Below are positions 22,033 through 47,288 of a stretch of 64,000 bases of DNA, piece by piece. The notes under the pieces were generated by a model. The model saw only the letters and a program-made list of their open reading frames with translations, had not been told where the DNA came from and searched no databases. Within the stretch, counting starts at the first letter, position 1; each line of letters starts with the position of its first letter. The DNA is taken from the IMG/VR virus record IMGVR_UViG_3300014203_000016, positions 1 through 64,000 of that record; one strand, 5' to 3'. The stretch comes from a virus. Its lineage: Duplodnaviria > Caudoviricetes. The position numbers were made by a program, and so were the translations under genes.

Positions 22033-22062
22033 AGGGTCACCTTCCTTGTTTATTCTCTCGTT

Positions 22063-22074
22063 TAGTTGTAACCA
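22063..22074 (-). promoter_or_regulatory. Candidate phage late-promoter motif TGGTTACAACTA (copy 2)
   Basis: Identical to 9935-9946; lies between the terminator and the SD of the hydrolase gene. Confidence 0.4.
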
Positions 22075-22084
22075 TAGACGCACC

Positions 22085-22117
22085 AAAAAACAAGAGGAAC
22101 CCGTTAGGGTCCCTCTT
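22085..22117 (-). terminator. Intrinsic terminator
   Basis: AAGAGGGACCC-TAAC-GGGTTCCTCTT followed by GTTTTTT, after the stop at 22125. Confidence 0.85.
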
Positions 22118-22124
22118 TCGGTTC

Positions 22125-25100
22125 TTATTCGGTTTCGGCTTTTTCGGCAGCCTCGGTCGCTTGCGCTTCGGCTTGAGCATCCGTCAAATCATCTGCCAGG
22201 TTTTCACCTTCCATTTGATTCAACAGCTTCGGCACGAAGACCCACCAAGAGTCGTTGCCTTCATCGGCATCTCCGAATTCGGCGTCGTAGATACGGTCAG
22301 CCAAACTCGGGTCATCGCCCCACACACCTCCCCGATGCCCGTTCATTCCGGAAACCCAAGCGCTACCTTTGTACTGTAACGGCACGACTTTGACGCATTC
22401 CGAATTCTGTTTCCTTCGGGTCCACATCTCTATCAGTCCGGAAGTTAGCACTTCAAGCGCCACATCGGCAATGACCGTCCAGAACAAGGCGGAACTGGCT
22501 ACCGTCAAGAAGAGTTTCCCGCCGGTCTTCAGGATTTTGCTCGCCCCTTTGCCTACCGTTCCGGCGGTGTCGACCATCCGGGCCAGATTGCCGGTGTTGC
22601 GGACAACTTTCCATTCATCCTTCAAGGTATCGAGTTCATCCGAGTGTGTAAACAGTTGGTCCCACATTTCGAAATCGTCGAAGTTCTTAATCGAACGTTT
22701 GGCGACTTTCGTTTCGTCGAAGGCTTCCGTCACAAAGTTGGAATATTTCGAATACTTCAATTGTCGCTTGTTCGCTTTATATGTCTTGCGTGCATCCCGC
22801 AGGCTGTTCTTCGTCTTCTTGATGTCGGCGATGATGTCATCGATGTCCGAATCCAAGAGACTATTCGGGTCGAACGCTTCATGGTTGGCTTTTTCGTAAC
22901 GTGAGACCAACTCCAACAAGGAAGGGCTGTTCGTCAGTTCCCCCATCTTCCGGTAGTAGTTGATGTAGCCTTTTTTCAGGATGCCGCCCACGTACTTGTC
23001 CGCATACGGTTGGAACTTCACGGCCAAGGAGCCGAGTTCACTGTAGATATAGGACAGGACGTGTCCGCCGAACAAGTAGGAATTGCCCAGATTGATGGCG
23101 GATGCGGCCGCACGGAAGGATACGGTTTTGCCGACGGTGAAGATTTTGTCAGGCAAGAACAACAGCTCGGCATCGAAGTTGACGACGTAGGCATCCGGTT
23201 CGATGACCGTGATGAAGCCCGTATCCAAACTCATGCTCTGGTGCACCGCTTTGACCATGTGGACGCCCTGCATGTCCAGGACGGTATCTGACAAGTAACA
23301 ACTGTCGTATGGCTTGACGGTCGGGTCTCCCAAAACCGTGTAGCTGCCTTTGTACATGTCCTTCATGTAATCGCGCACGGTGGCCATGCCGTATTTCTCG
23401 GCTTGGGCTTCGACTGTCCAGTAGTTCTTTCCGAAGAATTGGCCGATGTTGCCATCCGTCCCGAAACGGGCAACCAGATTGGCTTCGACCATTGCGGTTT
23501 TTTGTCTGTCCAATTGGATGTCATTATCCGCCTGCATCGGTCCGGCGACGTGACCATCATAGGTGACAATGACGTTGTTATATACCCCTTCTTCCGAAGA
23601 GATGATGTCATTGGCGACGATATTGTAATCGGAAGTGTAGATGTGCGCCTGCATGAAGGTCTTTTTGTGCTCGCCGATGATTTCCTTGCGCCATTTCCCG
23701 GTGGCGGCATCATGCGTGTAGCGACTGTTGTATTTGTAGGTGACCGGCCAGTGCGGTTTGCCGAAGAAGAGCGAGGAGCGCATCTCGAAAGGCATGACGG
23801 CCGCGATGTAGTCGGTCGAACAAAGCGCGAACGTCTGGATGATGTCCCACGGTGTACTGCCGTACAGCTTGACGAGGATGTTGTCTTCGTCATACTTACT
23901 GGTCAGGTTTCCGCTTGGCAAGCCCCCGAACAAGCCCTGAATGGCCCCGACCGTCGTGCCGTCAGGCTTCATCCATTGTTCCTTCGTGAACTGACCGTTT
24001 TGGGAATAGACGTTCTGCATCGATTCGCCGTAACTGGAACTGAACGGATTGACCGTGCCGGAAGGCGCTTCGATGGTGGAACCGAAGTGGGCGATGCCCA
24101 ACGGATTTTCCTTGAAGAATTGGCCGTCGCTGGTCGCGTTAATCCAGTTCTTCATCCAGTTGCCTTTGGATGTCAACAGCTTGCCGATGTAATCGGAAGG
24201 CTCGATGATTTTCATGAACTCTTTGTTTTTGTCGTTCTCGCTACCGGAAATGACATTGGACAGTTCCAAGCCATCGCCTTGGGCGGTGATTTCAACCACG
24301 TCCCCGGCGGAGACTTCGGTGATGACCCCGTTGAAGACGACCGGCAAGTAGCGGGCATCGGAACCGTAACCCATGCGCAAATGGATGCGCGCGCCGGTTT
24401 CCAGCATCATCGTTTTGAAAATCAGTTGGCGTTCCTTCAACAAATCCTCGGTTGGGGTATCGAAGACATATTGCTCCCAGAATTGGGAAGAGAAGAAGCT
24501 CGGCAAAATCAAATCCGGATACTCCATGTCTTTGCGTTTCGAGGTCAACCCGCCGTACATGTTGGACATGGCAATGACGGCTGTGTCTCCAGCAATCTTG
24601 CGCGATTTGTAGACATCGATGCTCTGCAATGCGTTGAAGCCGTAGAAATTATCCCAGGTGCGGAAGTTGTCGTACCATTTGCCCTCGTCCACGATTTGCA
24701 TCGAGAAGGTCGGGAAGGCGCGCAGCATCCGGCCGGTCTGGTCGTATTGATACATATCGACGAACATGCCTTTCAGCTTCTGTTCCGGCGTCCAATTCTC
24801 GACATTGTTGTGGATTTGTTCTACGTCTTTCGCGTAGTTGGCATCCATCTGCTCTTGCTTGCCTTCCGTGATGACGCCTGTTTCCACGTATTCGCCTTCA
24901 GCCGGGTCGTAGCTTTGGGCGTAGGAAGATTTGGTCGCATTGTAGAAATCATAAATTTCGCGGATGATGGTGCTGTTGCGGCCCATATATAAACCGGGCG
25001 CAATGTCTTCGGTCGCCATCGCCCGTTCCCGTTCGCGCGTCGTCATGACGGCCTGGAAATAGATGGAACTGTCCGGGGTAATCGGGCCGTTCTGGAAACC

Positions 25101-28100
25101 ATCCTTCAGGTCAACGGAGGCAATCAGTTTATCCGTCAGCTTCGTGTCTTTTTTGATGTCAAGAATTTTCGGCAAGGTCGCACCCGAATTGGCCACGACT
25201 GCCCAATCCAAACGGCGGGCGAAGATTTCCCGGAAACCGGAAACTTCGGCCTTCTTGAAGACTTTGGCGATTTGGTTCACGGTTGTTTTCACATTGTAGA
25301 ACCAATCCCAAATCAGACGTTGGGCTTCCGAAGCGTCCTTGGCTTCGGTCAAACGGGCGCCCATCAAGCCGGCTTTTGTCGGCAACATTTGGTTCTTATT
25401 TGTGTCGTAGACAAAGGCTTCCCCGTTTCCGAATTGCTGCCAACCGGATTCGGTTTGGATGATGGCTTTCATATAGGAGAAGATGCGGTGGAAAGGCATC
25501 GGTTTTTCGTCCGAGAAAGCATCGAGAAGGGCTTCGGCACCACCGAAATAGCCGCCGTCCGCAAACGCATCCGGAACCTTGCCGTTCTCGAGTAATTTGC
25601 CCGCGCCTATCGTTCCGGTCATCATCGCGTATATCTTTTGGTAATAATCTTCCGCATTGGCCCAAACCAAGCGGCCCAAAGCGAAGTCCATTTCGTACTG
25701 CGAACTCAAGGAAGCATTGGTCGCAACCAGTTCTTTTTGCTTCAAAGACTCCTCTTCGTTCTCTGCATACTCGATATTGCAATCGGCGAAAGCGGTCATG
25801 ATGCAGTCGGCCAAATACCACCAGACTTTGACATCATTCAACGGCGAACCGAGCTGGGCTTTCCACTTGTCGTAGTCGTCGCGGTCGCGGTCTTTTCCGT
25901 GCCACGATTGCCACGTCAGGAAGCTCGGCGGGTTCTTGTAGCTGCCGGAAGAAAGATATTCGATGATTTCGGCGTTTTCGTATTCTCCCGGCTGGACCGG
26001 TTTCAGCGTGACAGCCGTTACGCTTTCGGACGCATCCTTGGTTTCATCCGAGAAGCCGTCATCCCAAAACAAGGTTGGGTCGATGTATTCCGTTTCGGCG
26101 GCCTCAGCTTCAAAGCGGGTCTGGTCGGTCGACGACATCTTCAACGGGTTCTTTTCTGCTAGATTAGATTCTGCCACATAGCCAGAAGCGTCTTCCCAAC
26201 GGAAAAGCATACCTTTGCTATCATCCACCACGTCTTTTAGGTATTTGCGATATGTGTCCTTTGTGGAGATGTAGAAATCCGGGTCCAAAAAGACTTGGTC
26301 GCTTCGGTTTTCCCATTCCTTCATGCGGGCATTGATATGAGGTAAAACCGCATTCAATTCTGATACTTTTGGCATGTCCAAATCCGGATACAATTCCATC
26401 TGACGCATTCGTTCGTGCACATATACAGAATCAATACTTGGGTCGTATTTGTCATAAGCACGGTCCCGCAGGCTGTCTGTTATGTCTCCGCCCGTATATC
26501 CATATAGAGATTCTTGGCGACGCTGTGTCTTATCGAACGCGGATAGCGTTATTGTTACAATTTTCCGGTCAGGGAATCCGGCAACAGTATTGTACTGCAC
26601 CGCTTGTGGTAAAACATTGGTAATCCCAAACAAGTTTACCAATGGATTGTCGATGCCGAGAAAGCCACTAACCAAACCTTCCCTGTATTCTTTGGCGAAA
26701 CGTCCGACCTTTCGAAACATCGCTTCGGTTGCTTGGACACCAGCATCGGTTGTCTCAAAAGTGATTTGCAATTGGGGGTCTTGTGAGCCAAAATATTGCA
26801 TTGTTGGCGTTGTCGCAGATTGAATTTGCACCGTAGAAAAATTATTTTCCAACTCGACACTCATATCCAACGGAATCAAATCGGGTATAAATACTTTATC
26901 CATCTTCATGTTTTCTTCTGTGCGATTGATTTCGGCTGCTAACCCATTGTAAATGCTCGTATAGTTCGCCACTTTATTTTCGAATGCATTCGCCAATTCG
27001 GCAATCTTCTTCAATTTGGTCAAGTATTGGCCGGCGCCAGCATCCGTTGCAGGGATTAAGAAAAGTTCGGAATCCGGGTCGTCGCCATTCGTGTCTCCGC
27101 CATATGCTTTTGCTTTTGTATCTTTAAATGTCTTTTTGTTTTCTTCGGCCTCAAGGTAAAGCTGGAAAAAACCAGGTGCGTTAGAATCCATCACTACGTC
27201 GACAATATCCGTGCGGTTGTTTTTGCGCAACTTTTCAAAGAAAGGCCCAACATCGTTCGAGAAACTATACAGTGTAAAGAAGGCGTTAGCCGGAGTCTTC
27301 ACGGCATCGGCAAAGATTCCCATCAGGAAGAAAGGCATGTCGACGGACCGGCCGTCTTTCGTCGCGCTTTCTCCATACATCTTGACGGCGAATTCCCGTC
27401 CGATTTTGTTTTCTGTGTTGTTTTCAATACTGACGCCGCCACCAGCCATAATAGGAATTTCATAAGCGTGGTCGTATTTTTCAAGTGCGTCGTATTTTTC
27501 CAAGATTCCTCCGCGTTGTAACTCTAAAAGGAAGCGGTGGTATTGTTTCAAAACGGCTTGTGCGCGCAAAGCATCTTGATACTTGCGTCCATCTTCCGTA
27601 TCATCGGCCAATAAATCCTGTTCGAATTCGTAAGGCGTTTGCTTGCTTCGGAATTCATGAATATTATCCTTACGAGCTTTCAGTTGCTCTTCGTTCACGA
27701 TTGAGAAAGAGAAGCTGTTATCTAATCGGTCAATTTTTGGCAAATAGGTACGCCAAGGCTCATGCAAAAATGGTTCATGTAGGCTTCTTTGATAATGCCA
27801 ACGCAGTAGTGGATAATTGATTTTTTGAGCCAAGCTTACTTGTCCCATCAAATACGGACCGCAATCAAATTCTTCAACGACCAAAGTAACCTTCATTGCT
27901 CCAGGAAAACCAGGTACTGTTGCTGCCTGCATGCTGCGCAAAGCAACGTTGTGGATGCCAAGAACGCTATTGATGTATTCATTATCGATTGGCAAAAACG
28001 GTGCTTTTTTGAATTGAGCCAACAATGGGCGCAAGCCATCCATGTAATAATAGACAGTTTCGTTCTCTCCGGTTACGTAACCAATCGTTTTTGTTCCGTT

Positions 28101-29207
28101 GACGCTTTCCAAGTCGTGGTAATACAAGTCCATACTGAGAATATTCCGGACATTCCCGACTTGTTTTTGCAACGAGCTTTTTGCACGCATAGTAGACACT
28201 TTTTGATTTTGGAACTGCTTATCCAAACGAATCGATAGCGGCGGGATGGTAATGAAGACATCTCCGATACGCACACGGTTCTGATAGTCCCAGGGCAATT
28301 CTTCTCCCATGTCTGCGGTAGGTGCATAAATCGTTCCATTTGAGATGCGGTCATCTACCGGTGGGACAAAGGCTAGGTCGTTGTTCAAATAGCCGACCTG
28401 TGAAACATCTTCTCGAATATGTCCTTTATCTTGGTAATCACTTTTGTATTCTTTCACGGCTTGTTCTATTTCTGCATCTATTGGCAAACGGTCTGGCGTG
28501 ATACCGTCACTAGGCGATTTGACAATTTCTTCCATCGGCGGAACGCTCAATCCTAATTCGGCGCCCCAATCCGCAATCCGGATGCCGTCATTTTTAGAAG
28601 CATATTCATAACCTGTAAATTCAGCCAAAGGAACCATAATAGAACCCGTATAGTCTTTTTGTGTTTGGATATAATTCGAATACATAGGTTTCAACAATTC
28701 TTTATTAATGTTGATTGCCTTAAAGTATCCATCTTTTGCAGCCTGCGCTGCTTCTTCCCAGGTTGTGTAGTCCGTTGCGTAAACGACGCCTAAAAGTCGC
28801 CCGAAGTAATCGGCTGTCGGCTTCATCGTTGCGACATCATATTGCAGACTGACCGCAATAATGCGCTTCGATTCCAACAGAGTATCATTCAGATGTTTGG
28901 CTTCGATTGCGGCTTCATTGAGGATGTCCATGTCGACGCCATAGCACTTCGCGCGGTTCCAGTTGCGCCATTTATCCCCGACACTTTCGAAAGTATCCAC
29001 GCCCAAATAGCGTAATCTGACATGTTGGTCGCCGATGATGGATTGTTCCCCGATTTTTTCCGGGACGGGGTAATTGCCTTCCGGCCAAGCGTAACCGATG
29101 ACGTACCCATCAAGGGTATCGCCGTCGATGGCGTAGGAGCTTTGAGAGTCGAAGAATAGCCAGAATTTATGTTCACTTTCAACTACGGTGTTTTCTACAA
29201 TCGGCAT
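22125..29207 (-). CDS. Giant baseplate hub-like protein with an N-terminal thermonuclease (SNase) domain and an internal lytic transglycosylase-like motif (2360 aa)
   Basis: IDGDTL...RLRYLGVDTFE...DYFGRLLGVVY...NINKELLK (SNase). KAIIQTESGW...GLMG (SLT-like). C-terminal YKGSYTVLGDPTVKPYD...VKAVHQSMSLDTGFITVI is hub-like. Confidence 0.75.
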   Translation of the reverse strand: MPIVENTVVESEHKFWLFFDSQSSYAIDGDTLDGYVIGYAWPEGNYPVPEKIGEQSIIGDQHVRLRYLGVDTFESVGDKWRNWNRAKCYGVDMDILNEAAIEAKHLNDTLLESKRIIAVSLQYDVATMKPTADYFGRLLGVVYATDYTTWEEAAQAAKDGYFKAININKELLKPMYSNYIQTQKDYTGSIMVPLAEFTGYEYASKNDGIRIADWGAELGLSVPPMEEIVKSPSDGITPDRLPIDAEIEQAVKEYKSDYQDKGHIREDVSQVGYLNNDLAFVPPVDDRISNGTIYAPTADMGEELPWDYQNRVRIGDVFITIPPLSIRLDKQFQNQKVSTMRAKSSLQKQVGNVRNILSMDLYYHDLESVNGTKTIGYVTGENETVYYYMDGLRPLLAQFKKAPFLPIDNEYINSVLGIHNVALRSMQAATVPGFPGAMKVTLVVEEFDCGPYLMGQVSLAQKINYPLLRWHYQRSLHEPFLHEPWRTYLPKIDRLDNSFSFSIVNEEQLKARKDNIHEFRSKQTPYEFEQDLLADDTEDGRKYQDALRAQAVLKQYHRFLLELQRGGILEKYDALEKYDHAYEIPIMAGGGVSIENNTENKIGREFAVKMYGESATKDGRSVDMPFFLMGIFADAVKTPANAFFTLYSFSNDVGPFFEKLRKNNRTDIVDVVMDSNAPGFFQLYLEAEENKKTFKDTKAKAYGGDTNGDDPDSELFLIPATDAGAGQYLTKLKKIAELANAFENKVANYTSIYNGLAAEINRTEENMKMDKVFIPDLIPLDMSVELENNFSTVQIQSATTPTMQYFGSQDPQLQITFETTDAGVQATEAMFRKVGRFAKEYREGLVSGFLGIDNPLVNLFGITNVLPQAVQYNTVAGFPDRKIVTITLSAFDKTQRRQESLYGYTGGDITDSLRDRAYDKYDPSIDSVYVHERMRQMELYPDLDMPKVSELNAVLPHINARMKEWENRSDQVFLDPDFYISTKDTYRKYLKDVVDDSKGMLFRWEDASGYVAESNLAEKNPLKMSSTDQTRFEAEAAETEYIDPTLFWDDGFSDETKDASESVTAVTLKPVQPGEYENAEIIEYLSSGSYKNPPSFLTWQSWHGKDRDRDDYDKWKAQLGSPLNDVKVWWYLADCIMTAFADCNIEYAENEEESLKQKELVATNASLSSQYEMDFALGRLVWANAEDYYQKIYAMMTGTIGAGKLLENGKVPDAFADGGYFGGAEALLDAFSDEKPMPFHRIFSYMKAIIQTESGWQQFGNGEAFVYDTNKNQMLPTKAGLMGARLTEAKDASEAQRLIWDWFYNVKTTVNQIAKVFKKAEVSGFREIFARRLDWAVVANSGATLPKILDIKKDTKLTDKLIASVDLKDGFQNGPITPDSSIYFQAVMTTRERERAMATEDIAPGLYMGRNSTIIREIYDFYNATKSSYAQSYDPAEGEYVETGVITEGKQEQMDANYAKDVEQIHNNVENWTPEQKLKGMFVDMYQYDQTGRMLRAFPTFSMQIVDEGKWYDNFRTWDNFYGFNALQSIDVYKSRKIAGDTAVIAMSNMYGGLTSKRKDMEYPDLILPSFFSSQFWEQYVFDTPTEDLLKERQLIFKTMMLETGARIHLRMGYGSDARYLPVVFNGVITEVSAGDVVEITAQGDGLELSNVISGSENDKNKEFMKIIEPSDYIGKLLTSKGNWMKNWINATSDGQFFKENPLGIAHFGSTIEAPSGTVNPFSSSYGESMQNVYSQNGQFTKEQWMKPDGTTVGAIQGLFGGLPSGNLTSKYDEDNILVKLYGSTPWDIIQTFALCSTDYIAAVMPFEMRSSLFFGKPHWPVTYKYNSRYTHDAATGKWRKEIIGEHKKTFMQAHIYTSDYNIVANDIISSEEGVYNNVIVTYDGHVAGPMQADNDIQLDRQKTAMVEANLVARFGTDGNIGQFFGKNYWTVEAQAEKYGMATVRDYMKDMYKGSYTVLGDPTVKPYDSCYLSDTVLDMQGVHMVKAVHQSMSLDTGFITVIEPDAYVVNFDAELLFLPDKIFTVGKTVSFRAAASAINLGNSYLFGGHVLSYIYSELGSLAVKFQPYADKYVGGILKKGYINYYRKMGELTNSPSLLELVSRYEKANHEAFDPNSLLDSDIDDIIADIKKTKNSLRDARKTYKANKRQLKYSKYSNFVTEAFDETKVAKRSIKNFDDFEMWDQLFTHSDELDTLKDEWKVVRNTGNLARMVDTAGTVGKGASKILKTGGKLFLTVASSALFWTVIADVALEVLTSGLIEMWTRRKQNSECVKVVPLQYKGSAWVSGMNGHRGGVWGDDPSLADRIYDAEFGDADEGNDSWWVFVPKLLNQMEGENLADDLTDAQAEAQATEAAEKAETE

Positions 29208-29210
29208 CTT

Positions 29211-29633
29211 TTATCCTCCATTCTCTATACGGGCATTTTCTTGCAGGGCTTGCGTAAAAAAGCGAGTCCCTGTATTGAAAAGGACGATTTCCTCTTGGAC
29301 GGCGATGGCCGAAGAAGTGAAGTTTTGATTGATATATTTGCGGGTTTGCAACGAAACGTCTGCATAAGCCGGCTTGTTATTCAAAAAGCGCACGAGCAAA
29401 TTGCGGTTTGCTTTCTCTCTTGTTTGGCGCATGTCATAACGGAATGGATATTGCAAAACCCTTTCGTCCATCTCGGCTATCAATTCGATTAAAAGAGGAC
29501 CCGCGGGAACATGTCCCCCGGGGCCAATAGTCGTTTCGATAATCAGGGACGAAGGGGCTTCCAATGTCACTATCCACGCGCTCTTTTCGGATTTCTTCGT
29601 AAGTGTCAGAATCAGCGTATCAGTCGTGTTCAT
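29211..29633 (-). CDS. Hypothetical protein (140 aa)
   Basis: SD AGGAGG; tightly packed between two giant genes; no family recognised. Confidence 0.65.
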   Translation of the reverse strand: MNTTDTLILTLTKKSEKSAWIVTLEAPSSLIIETTIGPGGHVPAGPLLIELIAEMDERVLQYPFRYDMRQTREKANRNLLVRFLNNKPAYADVSLQTRKYINQNFTSSAIAVQEEIVLFNTGTRFFTQALQENARIENGG

Positions 29634-29648
29634 GGAGTCCTCCTTGGT

Positions 29649-32600
29649 TTAGAATCCCAGCAAGCTGTTCATCGTTTTCTCGTAGAAGCTTCGGTCCAAA
29701 GCCTGGGTGTTGTCGGTGATGTTCACGTTCATATTCATCGGCACACCGGTCATGGACGAAACTTGTTGGTTAATGATACCGGATATGGTCTCCTGGTCAA
29801 CGTTGCCGTTGCCGGATACATTCAACCGGATATTCTCTCCTCTAGGTGTAACCCTTGCCGTCGGACTCGTCAAGAGTGCAGCCGGATTAACCTCTACGGG
29901 TGTCGCTTCTTGCTGGGCTTCGTTGCCTTCGGGTGTCGGCCCGCCTTTGATGGCAGAACCGACCAACCACATGGCGGCAAAACCGGCTCCGGCGGCCGCC
30001 GGGGCGCTACCCAACATCTTGCCGGCTTGGTTGCGCAAACCATCGAACATGTTGCCTGCCGTCACGTTGTCTTTCAGGTTGCGGGTTGTTTGGAAAATGT
30101 CGCTCATCCGGCTGAACTGTTGGTCGGCCGCATCGCTGAAACCGTTCTGCCCGCCGTTGGCTTTCTTGCGCATATGCATCAGGTTCTGGACGATGGTTTC
30201 GTTCTCCATCTTGCGGGATGCGTAATAGTTTTTGGCTACTTCGGCATCCTCACCCACACCCGAGAGCTGGGAAACATAATGCTCGACATTGTCCGTACCC
30301 AGAATGGTGTTCGGTCTATCCCGCAAGGCTTCGTACAGGTTGCCGCTGGAGTCTCCGCTCGAACGCCCAAAGTTGAAGGCGTCGTTGCGTAAGGAACCAC
30401 GGTGGGCGGTCGCCTCATTCGCTTGGGCAAAAGAAGTGAATCCGGTGCGGAAGAGGTCTTCTTTGCCTTTCGGAATGGCATCGATGGCTTGCATCTGCTC
30501 CATCAAGCCATCCACGCCGCTGACGCTCAGGTTTTTGATGGCACCCGGAATGGCGCTCTGGGTATCCATGAAGGAACTGGCTTTGCCCATCAGGTAGTCG
30601 ATTTTCTCGCCACCCTTGAGTCCGTCCAGGAAGTCCATGTCGATGCCCATGTTTTCCACGTTGGCTTTTTTCGCATCGATAAAGTTTTGGACAAACAGAT
30701 TGCCGACTTCATCGTAGCTGTTCATGATGTGGTTGTATTCGTCCGCTCCGATTTGCTTCTGTTTCAAGGCTTGGCTGTAGACATAATGCATCATGTCGCG
30801 GGAAGCCACCATCGCGTTGTCGGACATACCGATACCGGCTCCGGCTTGGCGTTTGGCGACGATGTTCAAGGTTTCGTCCAGCTCGCTGGTGCGTTCCTGG
30901 AAGAAGTTTTTCGCTTCCCCGTCGCTCATTTCGCTGATTTTCTGGAAACTGGAGAAGTTGCCCGGTTCCAATACTGTCGCTTTCGCTGTTTTTTGGAACC
31001 AATCGCGCTCGCGGGCCAATGCCCGTTGTACAGCGCGCGGGTCTTCTGCGCCTCGGTAGGCATCCAACACCGCATACAAGGTATCGCCATCGTAATCGGC
31101 ACCCATCGCTTTGGCGGCTTGGCGGGAAACCAACAAGCTATTGTCGGATTTGCTGTCGCTCGTCAAGTTGCTGTCGATGCGCATGCTCAGGAAGTTCAGG
31201 GAACCTTCCGACTGGGTCGGCTGACGGTTAATCATGCCGATGACATCGAAGGTGTCGTCCTTCTCGCGCGTACCCGTCATCCGGCGCAGGATTTCGTCGT
31301 GCATTTCATCCGGGTTTATCATTTCCGGGTTCATGCCGTTGGCGATAAAGATTTCCCGTTCAATGCCTTTGATGGAATGGGAAGCCATCTCGCGGGACAT
31401 GAACGCTTCGGATTCCCGGCGGGTGCCATTGGAAAGGAAGGAGCCATCCAACTGTTCCGCATACGCCCCGAATTGGTTGTAGGTTGCCGCTTTCGCGCTG
31501 AAACCATTGACGGAGCGCATCGTGCCGGTCCCTTTCAGGAAGCCGGATTTGCTACTCGTCGACAAGTACTGGCTCGAGTCGGCGGTCAATTCCGCCATTG
31601 CCGTATTGGCGCGTTTGCGGTAGCCGTCGCCATCGCGGATGATGGCTTTCTGGATATCGTCGCGCGACAAATCTTGCGAAGAATAGTCGCGGTTGTTGTG
31701 GGCATAGACCGAACTGTAGACCGATTCGAAATCTTTCTGGATTTTACGCGGGTTCACGCCCTCGTATTCAGAGAAGCCTTCTTCGATATTGCCGATGATG
31801 GGCACGTAGGTTTTCGCGAACAAATCTCCGGACATCGGGTTGTGCCGGCCTTCCATTTGCGTCTGCAGGAAGGCTTGGCTGTTGTTGCGTTTCAGGAAAC
31901 TGCCCAACTCTTCGTTCTCGATGCCCAATTCTTTGTTGTTCAAAAGAATCGTCATTGGGTCAGCCATGGTGTTGTAGTCGTCCATCTTGCTGCGGTTCTT
32001 GCCTCTGCCGATATCCTTCAATAAGGTGGCATCGAAGACATAATGGCCGTCGACCTTGCGGATGTTGGCATCGGCGGAGCCGGCCACGCTTCCGGTCATG
32101 TCGAACAATACGTTGTTCTCCGCTTTGATGGCGGAGATATCGTTTGCGCCCAGAGATTGCCGCACGCGCGTTCCATAATCGGCATGCGCCGATTGGGTGG
32201 CGCCTTCGGACAGATGGCTGAACTGTTGGTAGATAGGATTGCTTTCCCCATTCAGTTTGCTTTTCAGGATGTTCATCTCACGGATGGAGATGCGGGCGGT
32301 GGTCGATTGGCCGGCATAGTCGAAGACGTTGTGCCAGCGGGCTTGCGTGTAGACGTTGCCTTCATCGAAGCCGAAGTCGGCGCGCGATTGGCCCAAGAAG
32401 GTCTTGTACTGGTCGCGGGCGTAGGTTCCGGTCAATTCTTTGATGTTGGCTGCATCGCCGTACAGCAAGCGTTGGCCGTCAGCGTCGAAGGAAATGGTTT
32501 TGTCCAAGCCCATCGTCGCTAAATGCGGTTGGAAGATGTTCTTGAAGGCTTCGGCCTGAATCGTTTCGCGACTCAAATCCTGCGTCGAAAAGGCTTTGCC

Positions 32601-37064: not shown

Positions 37065-37096
37065 TCTGTTTCCTCCTCAAGAGCCCCTGTGCGGGG

Positions 37097-39158
37097 CTAC
37101 ATGTAGTTTGTGTAATTTTGCATGCCGGCTTTGATTTCTTCCGAACGGTCTTTTTGGATATTCAAACTGGTACTGAACGAATCTTCTGTTGCAGAACCTA
37201 CCTTCATGCCGATGCGAACATCTTTCAATCCGGCTCCGCGCAAAGCCTTCTCTAAATCTCCCGTATTAATCATGGTAGAAAAAAGGCTTTGTCGAATAGG
37301 AATAGCCTCGACTCCGGATTGGTCGGCGAGTTTTTCGTCATCGCCCCAATAGTTAGCTTCGGTCAATTCGATGCCCTCATTGCGCATCACTTTCAGCTTG
37401 ATGCTGTCCAAGGATGTGCCGGGGTTCCAGCCTTCCCACTTGGCACCGGGCAGATTGTATTTATCGAAATACTTATTCAGGTCTTCCGGTTCGTCTACTT
37501 TCAAGCCGAATTGCTGTTGGTAAATGCGCTTCTGGTTTTCCGGCACCAATTCCAATATCCGTTGCCGTTCACGCGGAGAAGCTTTGGCGAAAGCAGTGAA
37601 ATATTCCTTATCTTTCTTCGGCAAGGCCCGGTATGTCTTGCTGTAGTTGTAAGTATCCGATGCTCCGAACAACGTCGATTCGAATTCGTCTTTGTAACGA
37701 AGCGCCAAAGCGGCATAAGGGCCCACTTCGCCGGTCGGTCGGTCGCTGTCGATTTCATTCAACTGCAACTTGATGTCGGCCAATTCGGTGTCGATGTTCT
37801 CGCTGTTGGCGTCTTCGCTATCTTTCTTGATGTTAAGCCATTTTTTCTTGTTGTTCAAGTAGGCTTTCAAGTTTTTATTATCTTTTCCGCGCGTCGTATT
37901 CGTGTCGAAATACGCGTCCAAATCCATGCCTTCATATTTCTTGGCATCATCTTTGGCTTTCTCGTACAAACCCTTGTATTTGATGTATTTGATTTTGTCG
38001 AAGTACTCGTCGACTTCGCGCTCGCGTTCGCGGCGTTCCGGAATCCAAATCTCTTTTCCGCCCGGCGTCAGTTCTCGTCCGGTATCAATCACCGTCCGTA
38101 CACCGGAAACCAATCCGAAGACAATCCCGGTGCCCATTCCTTTGTTCCATTTGTTCTTCTTACCGGCCAGCAAGCCGATTCCCAATCCATTCAGGAAGGA
38201 AAGCCCCGGATTTAAGGCGGCCGTACTGTCAAACATCGGCATCAACCAGTCGCTAATCGGATTCTTCCAGTCACGCCAAGATTTGCTGTACAGTTCATCC
38301 GCATACGCTTCCGTCGCTGATTTCACTGGTAGGAATTTGTCGGCGATGATATTCACAACCGGTACCATCGGCAACAAATCATGAACCATCCATTCCGTCA
38401 ATTTGCCGGTGGTCAGTTGTCCCTCGGAGAACAAAGCTTCGGTCGCGATGGAGGATTCGTCATCCTTCAAGGTCACCGTTCCACCGTATTCTTCCGTGCG
38501 TTTCGACAAGTAGTAGTTCAGGTTGTCGTGCGCACCCAAACCTTCCATACCGAAGCGCGAACCTTTGGCCGCGTGCGGCGTATACACAACCACACGCATC
38601 GTGTCCATCATGTCATCGCGGACGCGTTTCAGCGGGTCTCCGTCGATGGAAACCTGCAGTTTCTGCCCCGGTTTGATGAATTGGCCAATCATCGCTTTGT
38701 TTTCTTCGTCATCCGTCTTGACGTTTACCCCTGCTAATTTAAACGGGTTATTCGCATATTCTTCCGTCAGGAAGGTGTTCTGGTCAAGGACTTGGGTGAC
38801 CGTGACGGTCTCTTTTTCGTTGTCCATATTCTGGAAGCGTTCCGCATAGAAGTTTTTCTTCTTCATGCGCGAAGAAACTTGGTCGCGGATGGTCGCGTAC
38901 TCGTCCTGTTGGCGTTCATCCAAATAACCGTTTTGGTTCAGGAGTGCGACTTCTTTTTTGGCCGCCCGGTACTGGTCTGAGTAAGGGGCTACGTCAGCCA
39001 AAATGCGGTAGCGGTCCAATGCAGAGTAATTGCCCTGTGCGTCTTTGCGTACCCCGTATAATTTTTCATATGCATCTCCAGGCAAGCGCTGTTCACCCTT
39101 GGCGACTTTCGCATAGGGGTCGCCGTGCAAGAAATCCTGGAAGTAACCGGCGCCGGGT
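37097..39158 (-). CDS. Exon 2 of the tape-measure-like giant protein (spliced product 2170 aa)
   Basis: After removing 39159-40162 the frame reads ...NTMPTW-L-PGAGYFQDFLHGDPYAK, in frame with the 677-aa ORF. No SD precedes that ORF's TTG. Confidence 0.85.
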
Positions 39159-40162
39159 CGTTTATCTTCGCAATAATTCGCTAAATTATTACCGTTCTTT
39201 TATGAACTGCTGCATGTTTCCATGCAGACGAGACTATATCTTCACCGCTCTAATTGAGCAGGCTCTCTGTTTCCATTTAATCCCTATGCTTTTGCAATTC
39301 TTCCTGATTACGGAAGACGGGAGCCGCTTGGCTGTACTCTACTCGGTTTGCCTTATCAAAATAAGACCTTCCCTTTTGATAGTCGTTGAACTTAACAACT
39401 TAGTTCTTTTAAGAGTTTGTCTCTCCACTGGATAGCTTCTTCCAGCTTCTTGAAGCTTTTCCGGTACTTCTTTTTGTTTCTTGAAATACCAACTTCGTAA
39501 AGACCATCTCTTTTGTCGTAGGATATATTTCTTAGTCCGGTCGTTTGGTTGTCGTACCGCTTATTGATGTTTTGAGTAGAACGATTTGCCCAGATGCAAT
39601 TTTCTTTGGAATATCCTGCATCGTTATCTATTCTTTCTATGCTTTGCATTGGAGGAGCTTCTCCCATATCTTGAAAGAAATTTTCGAACAACATCCATTC
39701 TTCTGAAATGCCAATCCCTCTTCCTCCGTAGTTGAAATAGCTTTCGCTTTTCGGATTGAGGCATCGTTGTTTCATTCCTACCCAAACATTATAAGTCCTT
39801 GTGTTTGCTTTTCCATGGCTTGTTATGTTGTTGAGAAAAATTTCTTTAGCAACACAACCACAAGAAGTGGTTTTTCCTAAACGAACCGAGGAGCCATTGA
39901 TTATTTTTTGACTCCCACATTTGCATTGGAATAACCAAAACGCCCCGCCCTTCCCCATGTGGGAAAAATTAATTGCGGTGAGTTTTCCAAACTGCTTTCC
40001 TACCATATCTTTTACTCGATAATCCATCATTATCACTCCTTCATAAGGAATATGATACCATAGACTACCGGGGAGAACTAGAGTTATTAAGCTGCTGATT
40101 GCCCTCGCCTTTACGTTAGGGGTTTCCAGCAATTAAGAAAGTTTATACTGACCAATAAGTCT
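39159..40162 (-). ncRNA. Group I self-splicing intron (1004 nt, IA-like) carrying an HNH endonuclease gene
   Basis: P1 exon CUGGCU pairs with GGUCAG, with U-G at the splice site. P element AAUUGCUGGAAA, Q AAUCAGCAG, R GUUCAACGACUA, S AAGAUAUAGUC (P7 GACUA/UAGUC). P9 CUGCAUG-GAAA-CAUGCAG. Terminal G at 39159. Confidence 0.93.
39392..40030 (-). CDS. Intron-encoded HNH homing endonuclease with a C-terminal AP2-like domain (212 aa)
   Basis: ATG 40030 with SD AAGGAG. WLFQCKCG...TTSCGC, YGGRGI, SIERIDNDAGYSKENCIWA...QNINKR. Lies in the P6a loop; lower GC than the exons. Confidence 0.9.
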   Translation of the reverse strand: MMDYRVKDMVGKQFGKLTAINFSHMGKGGAFWLFQCKCGSQKIINGSSVRLGKTTSCGCVAKEIFLNNITSHGKANTRTYNVWVGMKQRCLNPKSESYFNYGGRGIGISEEWMLFENFFQDMGEAPPMQSIERIDNDAGYSKENCIWANRSTQNINKRYDNQTTGLRNISYDKRDGLYEVGISRNKKKYRKSFKKLEEAIQWRDKLLKELSC

Positions 40163-43100
40163 AGCCAGGTCGGCATCGTATTCCGAATCGGATTGTAGTA
40201 ATCCTTGTTCGGGTCACGTGGCAAGTAACGCCGTCCGATTTCCGACAGGTCTCCGCCCAAACCACCGAGTTCATTTTCCCAGAACTTGTCGTTGTAATTG
40301 CTGAATCGGTCGGAGGATTCCAAGGTGGTGCCCCGGCCCGATTCCTCGAAGCCGAAAGCGGTCTTGGAAAGGAAACCGTACATACCGGCAAACTCGCCTG
40401 CGTTGTAGGTGATGTCCCGCATAACGCCGTTCGGATTGAACAGGCTCGCTTGATTAACGGCGCCATTCAGTCGCAACAGGACATTCGGGTCAGCCATCGT
40501 GCCGGCTTGGGATACTTGGTCACTCCGGTTGATGGTCTTGCCGTCTGTTAAGCGCGCATTCATCTGCCCCAATAAATATTGGGCAGAAGCACTGCCACTT
40601 CTGCCGACAGTACCGACTCCTGCGACGTTGCCTTCCCCATAGGTTTCCGTCAAAGCGGCAAGCTGGTCTTCCGGTACGGGCGTAACGGAACCGCCTCCGC
40701 CACCATTGCCGACTGCTGAGAAGATGCGTCCCAGGAATCCGCCCGGCATCGTGCCACCCGGCAGTTGTGGGATAACACCCGTGCTGTTCATCAAGCCGAT
40801 GGCCATCCGGTCACGTTCGGCGTTAAAGGTCATTTCATCGGCAATCAAAGCTTCTTCGTTCAGTTGGCCGTTTTCGTCCGTGAAGTTCACGTCGAAGACA
40901 TCGGAAGAAAGCGTCATGCTGCCGTTCGGCCCCATGTTGACGACGCCACCGGCATTCATGTTGATGTAAGCTGCACTCAAGCGTTCGTTATAGGAAGAAA
41001 GATAGGCTTCGTGTGATTCTTTCAGGTGACGGTTTGTCCGTTGCGGTTTGAGCACCCCGGACACGACTGTATCGATAGCCGGTCCGACCAATGGCACGTT
41101 CTGCAGTTCGGCAAAGCCACCGGTGACGGCATACGGACGGCTTTCTGCATGCTTGTCTTCGTAATGATAAGGGTCGGTGATGAAGTGTTTGATGGGTGCG
41201 AACGGATGCGTCAGTGTCGGCATCCAGTTATTGGCCCAGTATTCGTTCTCGGAACCGTACATGTTGTCAGAGAATTGGTAATCCGATTTCGCTTTCCGGT
41301 ACCAGTTGGCTTCGTAGCGGTCGATTTTGTTCCCCATCCAAGGCGAGTTGGAACCGATGTCCCAGAAACGGCCTTTGCGGATTGGGTCTTCGCCGGAGGT
41401 ATAGTATTTCTCTACATCTTCGGCTGTCCGGAAATCGGAGAACAGGCCGAAGGTAGCGAAGTTGAAGGCTTTGACCGGCGCAATCGCGCCAATCTGCTCG
41501 CCCCACGGCATGATTTTCTGCATGTCCCGGCCCCAGTTGTTGATGCCGGCGAATTCTTTCACGCGGTTTACGTCTTCGTGCATGTTGACGTACGTGTCGG
41601 CAGCCGCATCACTGGTCGCATCGCCGGTCATGCCGTCGAAGTAGACAGCTGTCTGGAAGGCGGCGTACGGCAAAACAATCCGGCGGGCCCATTGGTTGAA
41701 GAGAATTGATTGCGGGCTGTCTTTCAGGTGGTTCGGCAATCCCAATCCCAACTTCTGCAACGGCGTGTCCAAACGGTTGGCCAAGTGCCAAGGGATGACC
41801 GAAGCATCTGTGATGTTTCCGTGTCGGCCTGCGAACAGAGTCCCGCCTTGCTTGGACCAGTTAAAGATGCCTTCCGCCAGTCCAGCGGCATTGTTGAAGT
41901 CTTCATGATTGAAAGGCTGTTCTTCCCCTGCCTTTGACAGCGAGGCATTGATGGATTCCTGCAGTGTCGTATGTTTCTTGATGGGGGTGCGTTTGTTTGC
42001 CCCCAACAAATCGTCGCGTTTCTCGCCTGCGCCGGTGCCGTACCAAGGGTCTGTTTTGGCCAATGAATATTCCAGGTTGGACAGATTCTCTGGATTGTTT
42101 TTGTAGAAAGTCAGCCATTCGAGTTGGTTGTCATCGATATCCTTGACGCTGTTGCCTTTGGTTTTTGAATTGAAATAATCCATTTGCCCCAAGGCGCGCA
42201 GTTCGCCGATTTCCGCGCGGACATCATTCGGGAAGATGCCGGGGGTCGACAAGATGCTTTTGTTCAGGTCGATGCCTTTTTCGTCGGCCAACGCGATGCC
42301 GTATTCCTCAATCAGTTTGCGCAAATCATCGGAGGCTTTGACGCCGACCGTTTCGTTTTCCATGACATTGCCCATCTTGTCCGGCACATAAACATTCCGG
42401 CTCTTCAAGTAACGGGTGCGGTCCAGGAAGCCTTGCTGGTCGGGCATATAATCGCCAAAGAATTGCTGGCTGATTTCTCTTTCGAGATTGTTGCGAATGC
42501 GTTTTTGGGTCGTATCCAGCATCGTTTCCGGTTCGGAACGCAAACGAAAGCTTTCGCTGATGTTTTGGGCAATGCCCATCAGTCCGTCATCGGTCTTGAT
42601 ATCATAGAGGTCCATGTTTTTCAGGCTCATATTGGACTGGCGGTTAATCAGGTCGCCCAATACATCATAGACAGCTTCCTTGCTGTTCGGCGAAAGGTTC
42701 TTCGTCCGTCCGAACAGGTTGGCATAGGCCTGCTCAACGACATCTTCGGAACTGGACCAGCCTTGGTCGCTGCGTTTATAGATTTCCCCGACGATGTTTT
42801 CGGCATACAGCGGGTCATCGAATTTCGTGACTGCCCGTTTGATTTTACCGAAAACCGTTTCGCTTTCTTGCCCCAAGCCAAACAGCTGTTTGATGGCTCC
42901 CGGCTTATCGAAGTTTTCGATGTTGGTGCGGTCGGAAATGACATCGGCGTAATGCTTGTACATACCGCTCCGCAAGCTGACGCTGTCATAGTTTTCCCCT
43001 ACTAAATACTCGCCGCTCTTTTCGCGGAAAGCTCGGTAGGCATCGGCATCGGTCAGCCCGGACATCTCCTTGGAAATGCCGGTGTCGAAGATGTCGCCAT

Positions 43101-44613
43101 CCACATGCATGTAGGATTGGTTCAGTATCTTGGCGTAGGAAGTGGTGTTGCGGGATTCATCCACCCGGCGCAGGTTGTACTTGTCCTGGTCCATGAATGT
43201 GAAGAAGTCTTTGCCGTCTTCGTAGATTTCGAAGATGGTGGAATTGCGTTCTTTTGCCAATGTCCGTTTCGGCAGGAAATCGAGCGGGTTCATGTTCAGG
43301 AACGGGATTTGCCAGTTCTGTTGGAAATAATCGCCCATCTCGTTCGTCAGTTTGCCCATGCCCTGGACGTTGATGACCTCTCCGCTTTTGTTGTCGAGGA
43401 ACAGTTGGTTGGAGAAGACGTGCTGTTCTAAATCGGTGCGGTCCAAGCCCATTCTTTCGCCGGCCTGGATGTATTGCCGCGCGAACGGTTGGCTCTTTGT
43501 TTTCGAATTCAAACCGAGCGTATCTGCAGAAGAACTCGTCCGCAAAGGGGTGGAATAGCGGTCTTCAATCGTCCGGCCCTTGTTGTCTATCGAGCTTTTG
43601 ACCAAAAAAAGTTTGCCGTTGCGTTCTTCGGCGACGCCATCGCGGGCTTGTGCCATCGTGATTTGGGAATAGCCGTTTTCGGTCATCAGTTTCGTAAAGC
43701 TGTCGCTGTTCTTTTCGGCATGGGTCTTGCGTACCGATTCGAACAAGCCGATATCATACAACTGTTTATGCTGAGCATAGACATTGTCTTTGCTTGTGAC
43801 GGCCCCGCCGGCTTTTTTGGCTACGTATTTTGCCTCATCGACTTGTGCTTGCGTCTTGGTATAGCTTTCGAGCGACAAGTCCATCATGTTTCTGACGAAG
43901 GCTTTTTGGCTTTCTTCGTCGCGCGGATGGATGCCGAGATTGATGTTGCGTTTCGGATTGTAGTTGTATTCATCGAACAGTTTTTTGATGTTGACGTTGT
44001 ATTCATCAAAGATTTCCTTGCCGTTGGCATCGGTTGTCTTCCGCAACCCTTTGGCCGGGTCTTTCATGAGCCATTCGGCATTGTTCTCGAACATGCGGAT
44101 GACGTTGTCGAAGTTTTCCCCGAAGGCATCGCGGTAGGGGCCATCGGCACGGTTGGCGGCATTGCGCATGTTGATGATGGACGCGTCGCGTTTTGCCTTG
44201 CGGTGATTGCCCTTGTTGCGGTCGCCCAAGCGTTGTTGGCTTTGGTAGACATCGTCCAAGGCGTTGATTTCCAGACGCTTGCTCAGGTCTTTGTTGTAGG
44301 TGGCCAAGTTCCGGTTCAATTGGGCTTTGCGGCTGTCCGGATGCAAATAGGCGCGGGCAATGTTGCGCGGGCTAGCCTGTCCATATGTTTCCACGACAGC
44401 GCTGGAAAGGCTCTTCATTTCCCCGATTGTTCCCCGGAAACTGGCATTATTCGTTGCGCGGGATAAGTTCACCTTCCCTGATTTTAAAACGCCTGAGACC
44501 CCTTTAATCAGCTGATTTCGGTTTTTGTAGGCGGCATACCCAATCCCAAGACCGGCTGCCACTTGCAGGAAAGAAGGGCCTCTTCTCCCTTCTTCTTCTG
44601 TCCTATTTGCCAT
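40163..44613 (-). CDS. Exon 1 of the tape-measure-like giant protein
   Basis: The 1500-aa ORF follows the tail chaperones, the usual TMP position. Its last 16 codons are intron sequence. Confidence 0.75.
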
Positions 44614-44631: not shown

Positions 44632-45132
44632 TTATTCTTCGTTAAAGGTTAATGAAACACCTTCGAATTGTTGCAGCATCCAAGCCGCCTTTGTGTACAG
44701 TTCCAATTGGCGGGGCAAACTCATGCGTTCCAGTTCGTCCAGCGTGTATTCTGGGAAGCAACGCTTGGCGACGAGCGGAATCTGCAAGAGAAAGTTTGTG
44801 GCTAATTCTTCTGATTTTTGCGAAATGATGGTTTTCACGTCCGACGAACCATCTTCTTTCGGGGTGATTAACGATTCCTCCCGGACAAGCTGGCCTATCG
44901 TTGCCGTATAGCCTGCATAAATGCCTTCGTCCCAGTCTGCGATTTCCGGGTCCAATACGCACAGGCGGCAAATCATTTCATCCATTTCGAGCGTATCCTG
45001 GGCTTTATTTTTAATGTCCTGATATTCCAAATAGGTCAACAGTCGGTAAATAAATTCATTTCCGCTGATTTCAGTGTAATAAACATAACCATACGCATCT
45101 TTCCATTCAAGCAACAGTTGTTCCGGTGTCAT
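44632..45132 (-). CDS. Tail assembly chaperone-like protein 2 (166 aa)
   Basis: WKDAYGYVY...FIYRLL...ICRLCVLDP parallels the upstream chaperone. Confidence 0.7.
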   Translation of the reverse strand: MTPEQLLLEWKDAYGYVYYTEISGNEFIYRLLTYLEYQDIKNKAQDTLEMDEMICRLCVLDPEIADWDEGIYAGYTATIGQLVREESLITPKEDGSSDVKTIISQKSEELATNFLLQIPLVAKRCFPEYTLDELERMSLPRQLELYTKAAWMLQQFEGVSLTFNEE

Positions 45133-46486: not shown

Positions 46487-46506
46487 GTAGGAGTCTTCCC
46501 CCTTTC

Positions 46507-47244: not shown

Positions 47245-47262
47245 TTATTATTTCCTCCTAAC

Positions 47263-47288
47263 AAAAAAGGGAGCCACAGCGGGCCCCC
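47263..47288 (-). terminator. Intrinsic terminator after the tube gene
   Basis: GGGGGCC-loop-GGCTCCC followed by TTTTTT. Confidence 0.7.

Follow-up and report, generated by a model that had tools for sequence, protein, structure and literature searches.

A gene trio in the tail module of a jumbo contractile-tailed phage corresponds to the giant virion proteins of relatives of Bacillus phage 0305phi8-36, and the middle protein is predicted to hold a complete single-chain two-barrel RNA polymerase fused to a proofreading-type exonuclease, suggesting that this phage probably carries its own transcription enzyme in its tail. The trio lies on the minus strand of the window, a 64,000-nt stretch of the viral record IMGVR_UViG_3300014203_000016, and consists of gpA (2170 aa after removal of a 1004-nt group I intron), gpB (2471 aa), and gpC (2360 aa), encoded between two tail-chaperone genes and the baseplate genes. 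A first-pass annotation had described three giant virion proteins, the first spliced, carrying a degenerate staphylococcal nuclease (SNase) fold, an exonuclease plus RNA polymerase, and an intact SNase plus SLT-like motif, each with hydrophobic helices near a terminus. On reexamination this observation was confirmed, although the SLT-like motif and some of the hydrophobic segments proved weaker than described.

To establish the gene structure, we examined the ORFs at 40111-44613, 37097-39130, 29649-37064, and 22125-29207. Joining 44613..40163 (gpA exon 1, 1483 codons plus 2 nt) to 39158..37097 (exon 2, 686 aa plus stop) gives one open frame of 2170 aa, and an intronless ortholog of 2161 aa (P0012) reads straight across the junction, with TMPGWLPGADYF against TMPTWL|PGAGYF here. 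The intervening 1004 nt (39159..40162) were identified as a group I intron: Rfam RF00028 matched at 39210-39509 (E 2.7e-6, 37.3 bits, below the gathering score of 50), the 5′ exon ends in U and the intron ends in G (...UGGCU| and ...AAACG|), and the removal of the intron restores the frame, so that splicing is inferred from sequence. The intron carries an HNH homing endonuclease ORF at about 39392-40030 (PHROG 374, E 2.5e-67). A homologous endonuclease ORF splits the gene at the same place in phage KLEB27-3 and in a metagenomic relative (L003) and is absent in L004, L006, and 0305phi8-36.

Upstream of gpA lie two tail assembly chaperone-like genes, at 45199..45642 and 44632..45132 on the minus strand, which are counterparts of gp143 (tblastn E 8e-19, collinear; PHROG 29362) and gp144 (tblastn E 1.6e-13; PHROG 29368) of 0305phi8-36, their role being taken from Hardies 2007 (PMC2147016). 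A synteny survey, which had been proposed as a test, showed that the trio is collinear in every related phage or element examined: the region from sheath to baseplate is collinear with KLEB27-3, 0305phi8-36, L003, an Enterococcus casseliflavus element, and the BwK1 plasmid region. Importantly, gp145, gp146, and gp147 of 0305phi8-36 are annotated as identified in virions by mass spectrometry. Exon 2 of gpA matches gp145 (tblastn E 6e-99), an ortholog of gpA matches gp145 at E 4e-102, and gpC matches gp147 and its relatives by tblastn, whereas gpB shares only its position and C-terminal module with gp146. The counterparts of gpB in WH1 and KLEB27-3 are annotated as (virion) structural proteins.

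To characterize gpA, we predicted the structure of exon 2 with AF2 (pLDDT 80.5, pTM 0.72). Exon-2 residues 113-247 (38417..38821, minus strand) adopt a predicted SNase fold: all top Foldseek hits are SNase or Tudor-SN (SND1) proteins (prob 1.0, TM 0.61-0.66), and a wide VIA structural alignment search gave 1sta_A at Z 9.2 (rmsd 3.2, 109 of 137 residues) and Tudor-SN at Z 9.2. The catalytic residues are lost, as the sequence reads DQNT, KLAGVNVKT, and MRVVVY where SNase has DGDT, RLLLVDTPE, and YGRGLAY, and these replacements recur in the consensus of the 45-sequence family alignment. The Gly-rich stretch of gpA, proposed earlier as a hydrophobic helix, does not reach a transmembrane-like hydropathy score.

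The gpB gene (29649..37064, minus strand) belongs to a family of 43 cluster representatives, nearly all 2000-2600 aa, and encodes an exonuclease, a region of unknown fold, a two-barrel RNA polymerase, and a conserved C-terminal module. The DEDDh 3′-5′ exonuclease domain (about residues 85-350; 36015..36812) was recognized by searching the family profile against PDB sequences, which returned DEDDh enzymes at E 1.3e-7 (9l8b_A), 1.8e-5 (exonuclease I), and 9e-5 (PolC exonuclease), while Pfam RNase_T scored only E 0.01, below its cut-off. The ExoI DxE, ExoII D, and ExoIII Hx4D motifs occur in order, with D95, E97, D270, and H338 kept in 31 of the 31 family members that have the domain and D343 in 30 of 31. 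The domain is missing from five of the 36 aligned gpB relatives, and its motifs were not found in WH1 or Edson.

The polymerase module of gpB (about residues 1200-2270; 30255..33467) was modeled with AF2 at pLDDT 84.8 and pTM 0.80. The Foldseek top 50 are all RNA polymerase largest subunits, and the top 18 of the wide VIA search are all RNA polymerases. Escherichia coli beta′ aligned at Z 11.9, and the single-chain enzymes QDE-1 (Z 10.8), P74-26 gp62 (Z 10.3), P23-45 gp96 (Z 9.5), and RDR2 aligned from model residue 1 to about 1076, which covers both barrels; no beta-subunit chain was listed because beta′ chains fill the list. The beta′-type barrel reads NRQPTQS...GADYDGD, resembling the beta′ barrel motif, and its catalytic DYDGD (D1990, D1992, and D1994) lies at 31083..31097. 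D1990, D1992, G1993, D1994, R1947, and P1949 are invariant in 36 of 36 diverged relatives, as is K1402 of the second, beta-type barrel, and R1411 is kept in 35 of 36; both of these basic residues lie on predicted strands. The family profile hits phiKZ and AR9 beta′ at the same segment (E 1e-3 to 1e-2). In agreement with this, Pfam RNA_pol_Rpb1_2 finds its only match in the complete genomes of KLEB27-3, WH1, and Edson inside the giant tail gene.

The C-terminal module of gpB (about residues 2350-2471; 29652..30017), which is preceded by a moderately hydrophobic segment (2350-2372), is the most conserved part of the family and the only part shared with 0305phi8-36 gp146, BwK1, and WH1/Edson. The resemblance to gp146 is limited to the last 57 residues or so (pairwise E 0.008). 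The gp146 protein and its BwK1 counterpart lack DxDGD and NRxPT. We also found a complementary distribution of polymerases: 0305phi8-36, whose gp146 lacks DxDGD, has a separate YonO/RdRP-type polymerase (orf99, E 1.1e-20), while KLEB27-3, WH1, and Edson have the tail-embedded motif and no such gene. Pfam RdRP (PF05183) likewise found nothing in the contig that holds the window, but this contig is a fragment of about 36% of the genome, so a second polymerase cannot be excluded.

The third gene (22125..29207, minus strand) encodes gpC, the predicted giant baseplate hub protein corresponding to gp147. It matches PHROG 20474 at E 9.5e-194 over residues 1474-2313; the gp27 homology of gp147 comes from Hardies 2007, and our own family profile found no gp27 chain in the PDB. 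At the N terminus (about residues 20-175; 28683..29150), we found a putative SNase domain with the motifs IDGDT, RYLGVDTFE, and YFGRLLG, which were compared with the Ca-binding and catalytic residues of SNase (D21, D40, T41, E43, R35, and R87 equivalents). Of 30 ESM Atlas neighbors, 28 are SNase clusters (score 0.92), and homologs carry PF00565 or are named thermonuclease; however, Pfam SNase scored only E 0.085 (13.8 bits against a cut-off of 21), and the family profile found no SNase chain in the PDB. The SNase residues are lost in several close gpC homologs. The SLT-like ES...GLMG...YN motif proposed earlier is present at 25248..25490, but it has no support from Pfam (no hit at E up to 10) or from the family profile against PDB sequences, and the Glu of E1253-S1254 is replaced by R, Q, S, or T in several homologs and is not kept in distant ones. 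A moderately hydrophobic segment occurs at residues 2232-2250. Ahead of gpC lies a 140-aa ORF (29211..29633, minus strand) that, according to the consensus of a family alignment, is fused to the N terminus of the hub protein in many homologs, including L003; here it lies in frame with gpC, separated by TAA, with GGAGGA ahead of the gpC ATG.

Taken together, we propose with moderate confidence that the three genes are the conserved tail-internal and tail-tip module of a jumbo myovirus related to 0305phi8-36. In this view, gpA is a virion protein carrying a noncatalytic SNase-type OB fold followed by long helices; gpB sits in the tape measure position, keeps the C-terminal module that defines that position in the lineage, and carries two apparently active enzymes as cargo; and gpC is the enlarged gp27-type hub with an SNase domain whose catalytic residues are intact in this phage. 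gpB would be assembled into the tail through its C-terminal module, leave with or ahead of the DNA at infection, and then act as a virion RNA polymerase that transcribes the first genes of the entering genome, as gp96 does in Thermus phage P23-45, while the exonuclease and the hub nuclease would process nucleic-acid ends or substrates met on the way in. Our analyses establish the gene structure, the folds at the level of models, profiles, and motifs, the conservation of catalytic residues, and the synteny, whereas the presence of these proteins in the virion of this phage, their ejection across the envelope, templated RNA synthesis, and the timing of transcription are inferred. The earlier interpretation of a tail-delivered machine that crosses the wall and membrane and begins transcription and nucleic-acid processing is therefore only partly supported: the conserved trio, the homology of the two outer proteins to verified virion proteins, the claimed nucleic-acid enzyme folds (that of gpC from motifs and homologs), and the comparison with P23-45 hold, but that each protein carries a nucleic-acid enzyme is not a functional rule, as the SNase fold of gpA is catalytically dead in the whole family, the SNase residues of gpC are not always kept, and the polymerase and exonuclease are absent from the positional counterparts in 0305phi8-36 and BwK1. 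The enzymes look like exchangeable cargo on conserved structural scaffolds rather than one obligate three-part machine, and nuclease activity is not essential to the scaffold. It should also be considered that gpA lies directly after the chaperones and gpB is largely globular, unlike a classical tape measure, so that either may set tail length, and that a folded polymerase of over 100 kDa should not fit a tail-tube lumen.

Other readings of the same data appear less likely. It is possible, though we hold this only tentatively, that gpB is delivered but that its polymerase works mainly as a motor or end-processing device, pulling the genome of more than 200 kb into the cell or making primers or short RNAs while the exonuclease resects the entering DNA end. 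The structural and conservation evidence applies equally here, and fusion to a DEDDh exonuclease is not needed for ordinary transcription; Hardies 2007 raised polymerase-mediated injection for this lineage but thought it too slow to be used alone on a genome of this length. However, the characterized tail-fused precedent, P23-45 gp96, transcribes pre-early genes, and nothing in the sequence separates a motor role from a transcription role. A further reading, which we consider improbable, is that exonuclease and polymerase work as one entry device: after tail contraction the DEDDh domain would resect the 3′ strand of the leading genome end and expose single-stranded template, on which the clamp-poor two-barrel polymerase could start without host factors, with transcription helping to draw the genome into the cell, while lineage members without this cargo (0305phi8-36) would use a stand-alone YonO-type enzyme instead.

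We consider it unlikely that gpB is a nonvirion RNA polymerase that happens to be encoded in the tail operon, with its C-terminal similarity a relic of the gene it fused with. In the records we could read there is no direct virion evidence for any DxDGD-bearing member, the structural protein labels in KLEB27-3 and WH1 come without stated evidence, and the protein is mostly globular; yet the C-terminal 110 residues or so are kept in 36 of 36 members and in the polymerase-less counterparts, one of which (gp146) was found in virions, the gene always sits between the same two virion genes, and late-operon expression suits a packaged enzyme better than an early one. Equally unlikely is that the enzyme folds are mostly exapted, inactive scaffolds in a purely structural trio of tail-lumen proteins and a hub. 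The dead SNase fold of gpA, the loss of SNase residues in several close gpC relatives, and the counterparts that do without the polymerase motif are compatible with this, but the metal-binding aspartates, the NRxPT motif, and K1402 are invariant across members that share only 16-40% identity, and this pattern, together with the conservation of R1411 and of the exonuclease residues, is what selection on catalysis would produce.

A virion RNA polymerase built into a tail protein has so far been shown experimentally for one group of Thermus siphoviruses. Here, a contractile-tailed jumbo-phage lineage of Firmicutes carries a different, apparently independent polymerase fused to a proofreading-type exonuclease, a fusion for which we found no report in a contractile-tailed lineage, and sister phages have the same scaffold without the enzyme. 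KLEB27-3, WH1, and Edson against 0305phi8-36 thus provide a natural comparison set for asking how a large folded enzyme is stored in and released from a tail, whether these phages start infection independently of the host polymerase, and what a DEDDh domain adds to a two-barrel polymerase. The result also revises the meaning of the tape measure label used for this gene position since 2007.

Among known systems, the concept of polyvalent proteins of phages and conjugative elements (Iyer et al. 2017, PMC5512222) fits, as these are very large multidomain proteins that combine enzymes acting on nucleic acids and on the cell wall and are proposed to be delivered with the DNA. A word search of that paper found no mention of tape measure, SNase, or DEDDh, none of its RNA polymerase passages that we saw concerns a two-barrel enzyme, and the only link found here is a weak ESM Atlas neighbor with LPD38 (score 0.78, below the useful range). 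The single-chain two-barrel RNA polymerases (the QDE-1/RDR family, YonO, P23-45 gp64/P74-26 gp62, and the crAss-like phage polymerases, proteins of which appear among the BFVD matches) share both barrels in one chain, but gpB has no significant sequence match to any of them, PF05183 found nothing in KLEB27-3, WH1, or Edson, and none of these enzymes is described with a DEDDh domain in the papers we read.

The tape-measure-fused gp96 of P23-45 (Chaban et al. 2024, PMC10770324) is likewise a single-chain two-barrel polymerase with DxDGD inside a giant tail-module protein, and its solved structure 8h2m_A aligns with the gpB model over 272 residues at 16% identity, although no sequence-level homology was detected. 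P23-45 is a siphovirus whose polymerase is N-terminal to a long tape-measure region with a metallopeptidase domain, whereas here the tail is contractile, the polymerase fills the C-terminal half just before a short conserved anchor, a DEDDh exonuclease is fused at the N terminus, and a second giant protein, gpA, precedes it. Closest of all are gp145, gp146, and gp147 of Bacillus thuringiensis phage 0305phi8-36 and the BtI1/BwK1 elements (Thomas 2007; Hardies 2007, PMC2147016), in which the same three giant genes lie in the same order after a two-gene tail chaperone, gp147 is an enlarged gp27-type hub with exchangeable enzymatic domains, and an SNase domain on the BtI1 hub homolog was already noted in 2007. 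The phage studied here differs in the polymerase and exonuclease carried by gpB, which the counterparts in 0305phi8-36 and BwK1 lack, 0305phi8-36 instead having the separate YonO-like orf99, and in the group I intron that splits the gpA gene.

To place the three giant genes in their genomic setting, we examined the 81.8-kb viral contig from which the window derives, which is estimated to represent about 36% of a genome. The genes of interest are all on the minus strand, and in the direction of transcription they are arranged as two tail-sheath genes, three tail-tube paralogues, two small chaperone-like genes, the three giant genes (gpA, gpB, and gpC), a lysozyme/M23 peptidase gene, and baseplate wedge genes. 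The three consecutive tail-tube paralogues (45671-47939, minus strand) match a PHROG labeled "major head protein", a label that comes from a mis-annotation of the tail-tube genes gp140 and gp141 of Bacillus phage 0305phi8-36. A megablast search against phage records gave no match. However, tblastn placed the region next to the jumbo Bacillus myoviruses 0305phi8-36, vB_BauM_KLEB27-3, vB_BceM_WH1, and Edson, and to Moorella phage MTATph1. A gene-by-gene comparison showed full collinearity with KLEB27-3, 0305phi8-36, and a metagenomic relative (L003), and the region is also collinear with an Enterococcus casseliflavus element (L006) and with the BwK1 region of plasmid CP000904 (L007).

Direct searches with the whole proteins were of little help in identifying their domains. 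Pfam, PHROGs, and NCBIfam returned no family for gpA or gpB and only the PHROG hub family for gpC, and phmmer searches against PDB sequences returned nothing for gpB or gpC. A profile of the polymerase region of gpB built from four sequences also found nothing, and only the 36-sequence family profile and the structure model gave answers. Moreover, a scan of the viral and genome contig collections with the polymerase-region alignment found no relatives; the sequence patterns matched, but tblastn confirmed none of them.

The 1500-aa and 677-aa ORFs at the gpA locus are, as inferred from sequence, two exons of one gene. An uninterrupted orthologue of 2161 aa, found in locus L004, reads NTMPGWLPGADYFTDFLHGDPY across the point where the window reads NTMPTWL and then PGAGYFQDFLHGDPY, and joining 44613..40163 to 39158..37097 gives a single open frame of 2170 aa. 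The 1004 nt in between (39159-40162, minus strand) end in G and follow a U, match the Rfam group I intron model (E 2.7e-6, below the gathering score), and carry an HNH endonuclease gene. Homologous HNH endonuclease ORFs split the gene at the same place in KLEB27-3 (L001:14013-14648) and in the metagenomic relative (L003:7072-7716), with 67% and 53% identity, respectively, while other gpA family members carry inteins instead (PF14528, PF14890). This giant tail gene looks like a repeated target of mobile elements. The orthologue matches 0305phi8-36 gp145, a virion protein verified by mass spectrometry, at E 4e-102.

To examine the fold of gpA, we built an AF2 model of exon 2 (pLDDT 80.5), which shows a beta-rich domain at residues 113-247 followed by long helices. 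Foldseek returned only staphylococcal nuclease (SNase) and Tudor-SN at the top of its list, and an independent VIA-align search of 48,161 chains put SNase first (Z 9.2). The catalytic residues are replaced, both here and in the family consensus, and the description of this domain as a degenerate SNase fold in the first-pass annotation is thus correct. We also asked whether the SNase-type domains of gpA and gpC are recent paralogues. An hhalign comparison of the two family profiles put them opposite each other, but with a probability of 2% and an E value of 0.023, and no paralogy is shown. For the central conserved region of gpA, the ESM Atlas gave only weak neighbors (LPD38, score 0.78), which we regard as a lead rather than a finding.

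To define the gpB family, we ran a full HMMER search of 1.84 billion cluster representatives with a profile of the polymerase region, which found only 43 relatives, nearly all of them 2000-2600 aa long. In an alignment of 36 of these, D95, E97, D270, and H338 of the predicted DEDDh exonuclease domain are present in all 31 members that have this N-terminal domain, and D343 is present in 30. Strict regular expressions for the DEDDh and SNase patterns undercount, and the counts reported here are based on alignments. The family profile matches solved DEDDh exonucleases at E 1.3e-7 to 9e-5. In the predicted polymerase region, R1947, P1949, D1990, D1992, G1993, D1994, and K1402 are invariant and R1411 is kept in 35 of 36 members. 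The segment NRQPTQSEGS...GADYDGD resembles the beta' motif NRAPT...NADFDGD of Escherichia coli, and the profile aligns exactly this segment to the beta' homologues of phiKZ, AR9, and ASFV (E 1e-3 to 3e-2).

An AF2 model of gpB residues 1200-2330 is confident (pLDDT 84.8, pTM 0.80). Its 50 best Foldseek matches in the PDB are all RNA polymerase largest subunits, and VIA-align gives a Z score of 11.9 with E. coli beta' over about 390 residues. In the wide search, which does not depend on Foldseek, the top 18 chains are all RNA polymerases and include single-chain enzymes aligned over both halves of the model: QDE-1 (Z 10.8), P74-26 gp62 (Z 10.3), P23-45 gp96 (Z 9.5), and RDR2 (Z 8.8). We regard the two-barrel polymerase as established at the level of fold and catalytic residues. 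Among viral predicted structures in BFVD, the best match after an unnamed entry (A0A7R7G2L5_2, E 1e-29) is a "minor tail protein" of an uncultured siphovirus, Siphoviridae sp. ctnpt50 (E 8e-15), followed at about E 1e-8 by uncharacterized proteins of Acinetobacter phage vB_AbaM_ME3 and Microcystis phage MaMV-DC. Polymerase modules inside large tail or unannotated proteins may therefore be more widespread than reported.

Comparison across the lineage indicates that the polymerase is cargo rather than scaffold. The last 110 residues or so of gpB are the most conserved part of the family and are the only part shared with 0305phi8-36 gp146 and with the BwK1 counterpart, neither of which has DxDGD or NRxPT. 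By contrast, WH1 gp095 (annotated as a "virion structural protein"), Edson 0920, KLEB27-3 gp034, and the Enterococcus protein do have DxDGD. In gp146 (L002:17624-25237, where L002 is the 0305phi8-36 locus), we noticed DIETTG, a classic ExoI-type motif, in the middle of the protein at residue 1223, and gp146 may carry a different exonuclease cargo. Pfam RNA_pol_Rpb1_2 finds its only match in the complete genomes of KLEB27-3, WH1, and Edson inside this giant gene and finds none in 0305phi8-36. Conversely, Pfam RdRP finds the stand-alone YonO-like orf99 in 0305phi8-36 (E 1.1e-20) and nothing in the other three. Four genomes out of four thus have one arrangement or the other, which is a small number but consistent with the two being alternative solutions. 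No YonO/RdRP-type gene was found in the contig holding the window, although this says little given that the contig is only about 36% of the genome. A prediction of binding between the gpB C-terminus and the hub core, made from the window's own sequences, returned a score of 0.00, which counts neither for nor against binding.

gpC belongs to a large family of proteins of 2000-3600 aa (124 hits) that includes 0305phi8-36 gp147, identified by Hardies et al. (PMC2147016) as an enlarged T4 gp27-type hub with exchangeable N- and C-terminal enzymes; the same authors noted an SNase domain on the BtI1 homologue. In the window, the SNase motifs of gpC are intact, its ESM Atlas neighbors are SNase clusters, and several homologues are named thermonuclease or carry PF00565, although Pfam on this sequence stays below its cut-off and several close homologues have lost the catalytic residues. 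The hub family profile, when searched against PDB sequences, found no SNase, SLT, or gp27 chain, and the SLT-like motif proposed in the first-pass annotation has no database support. Other members of the family carry quite different enzymes at the variable ends, namely amidase_2, M23, glucosaminidase, NlpC/P60, LysM, SLT, and in one case a metallo-beta-lactamase-fold domain.

The 140-aa ORF just upstream of gpC (29211-29633, minus strand) corresponds to the N-terminal domain of the hub protein in many homologues and is fused to it in L003. Here it lies in frame with gpC and is separated from it by a single TAA, one codon, and a GGAGGA sequence that provides a good ribosome-binding site before the gpC start, an arrangement that may reflect a gene fission or possibly a read-through product. 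The gene after the hub (20896-22086, minus strand) combines a lysozyme-like region and an M23 peptidase region, with many PHROG lysin and tape-measure hits, whereas in 0305phi8-36 a related peptidase region lies near the C-terminal end of gp147 (tblastn E 3e-9). This is another example of domain shuffling between these tail genes.

Taken together, the observation of three giant genes bearing nucleic-acid enzyme folds holds, and the fold assignments of the first-pass annotation are right apart from the unsupported SLT call. Its interpretation, a tail-delivered machine that crosses the wall and membrane and begins transcription and nucleic-acid processing, is only partly supported: whereas the gene structure, the polymerase fold, the conserved residues, and the collinearity come from the analysis itself, delivery through the tail and early transcription are inferred from position, the conserved C-terminal module, virion data on relatives, and the precedent of Thermus phage P23-45, and enzymatic activity is likewise inferred. 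Full-text literature searches, in a library that is not complete, found no paper describing a polymerase in the tail proteins of 0305phi8-36-like phages, nor a DEDDh-plus-two-barrel polymerase cargo in the "tape measure" position of a contractile-tailed lineage. A word search of the supplements of the 2024 P23-45 paper (PMC10770324) found none of 0305phi8-36, WH1, KLEB27, Moorella, vB_AbaM_ME3, MaMV-DC, or Ma-LMM01. The trio itself is the known gp145/gp146/gp147 module of 0305phi8-36, and the closest experimentally studied case to its predicted polymerase cargo is P23-45 gp96.
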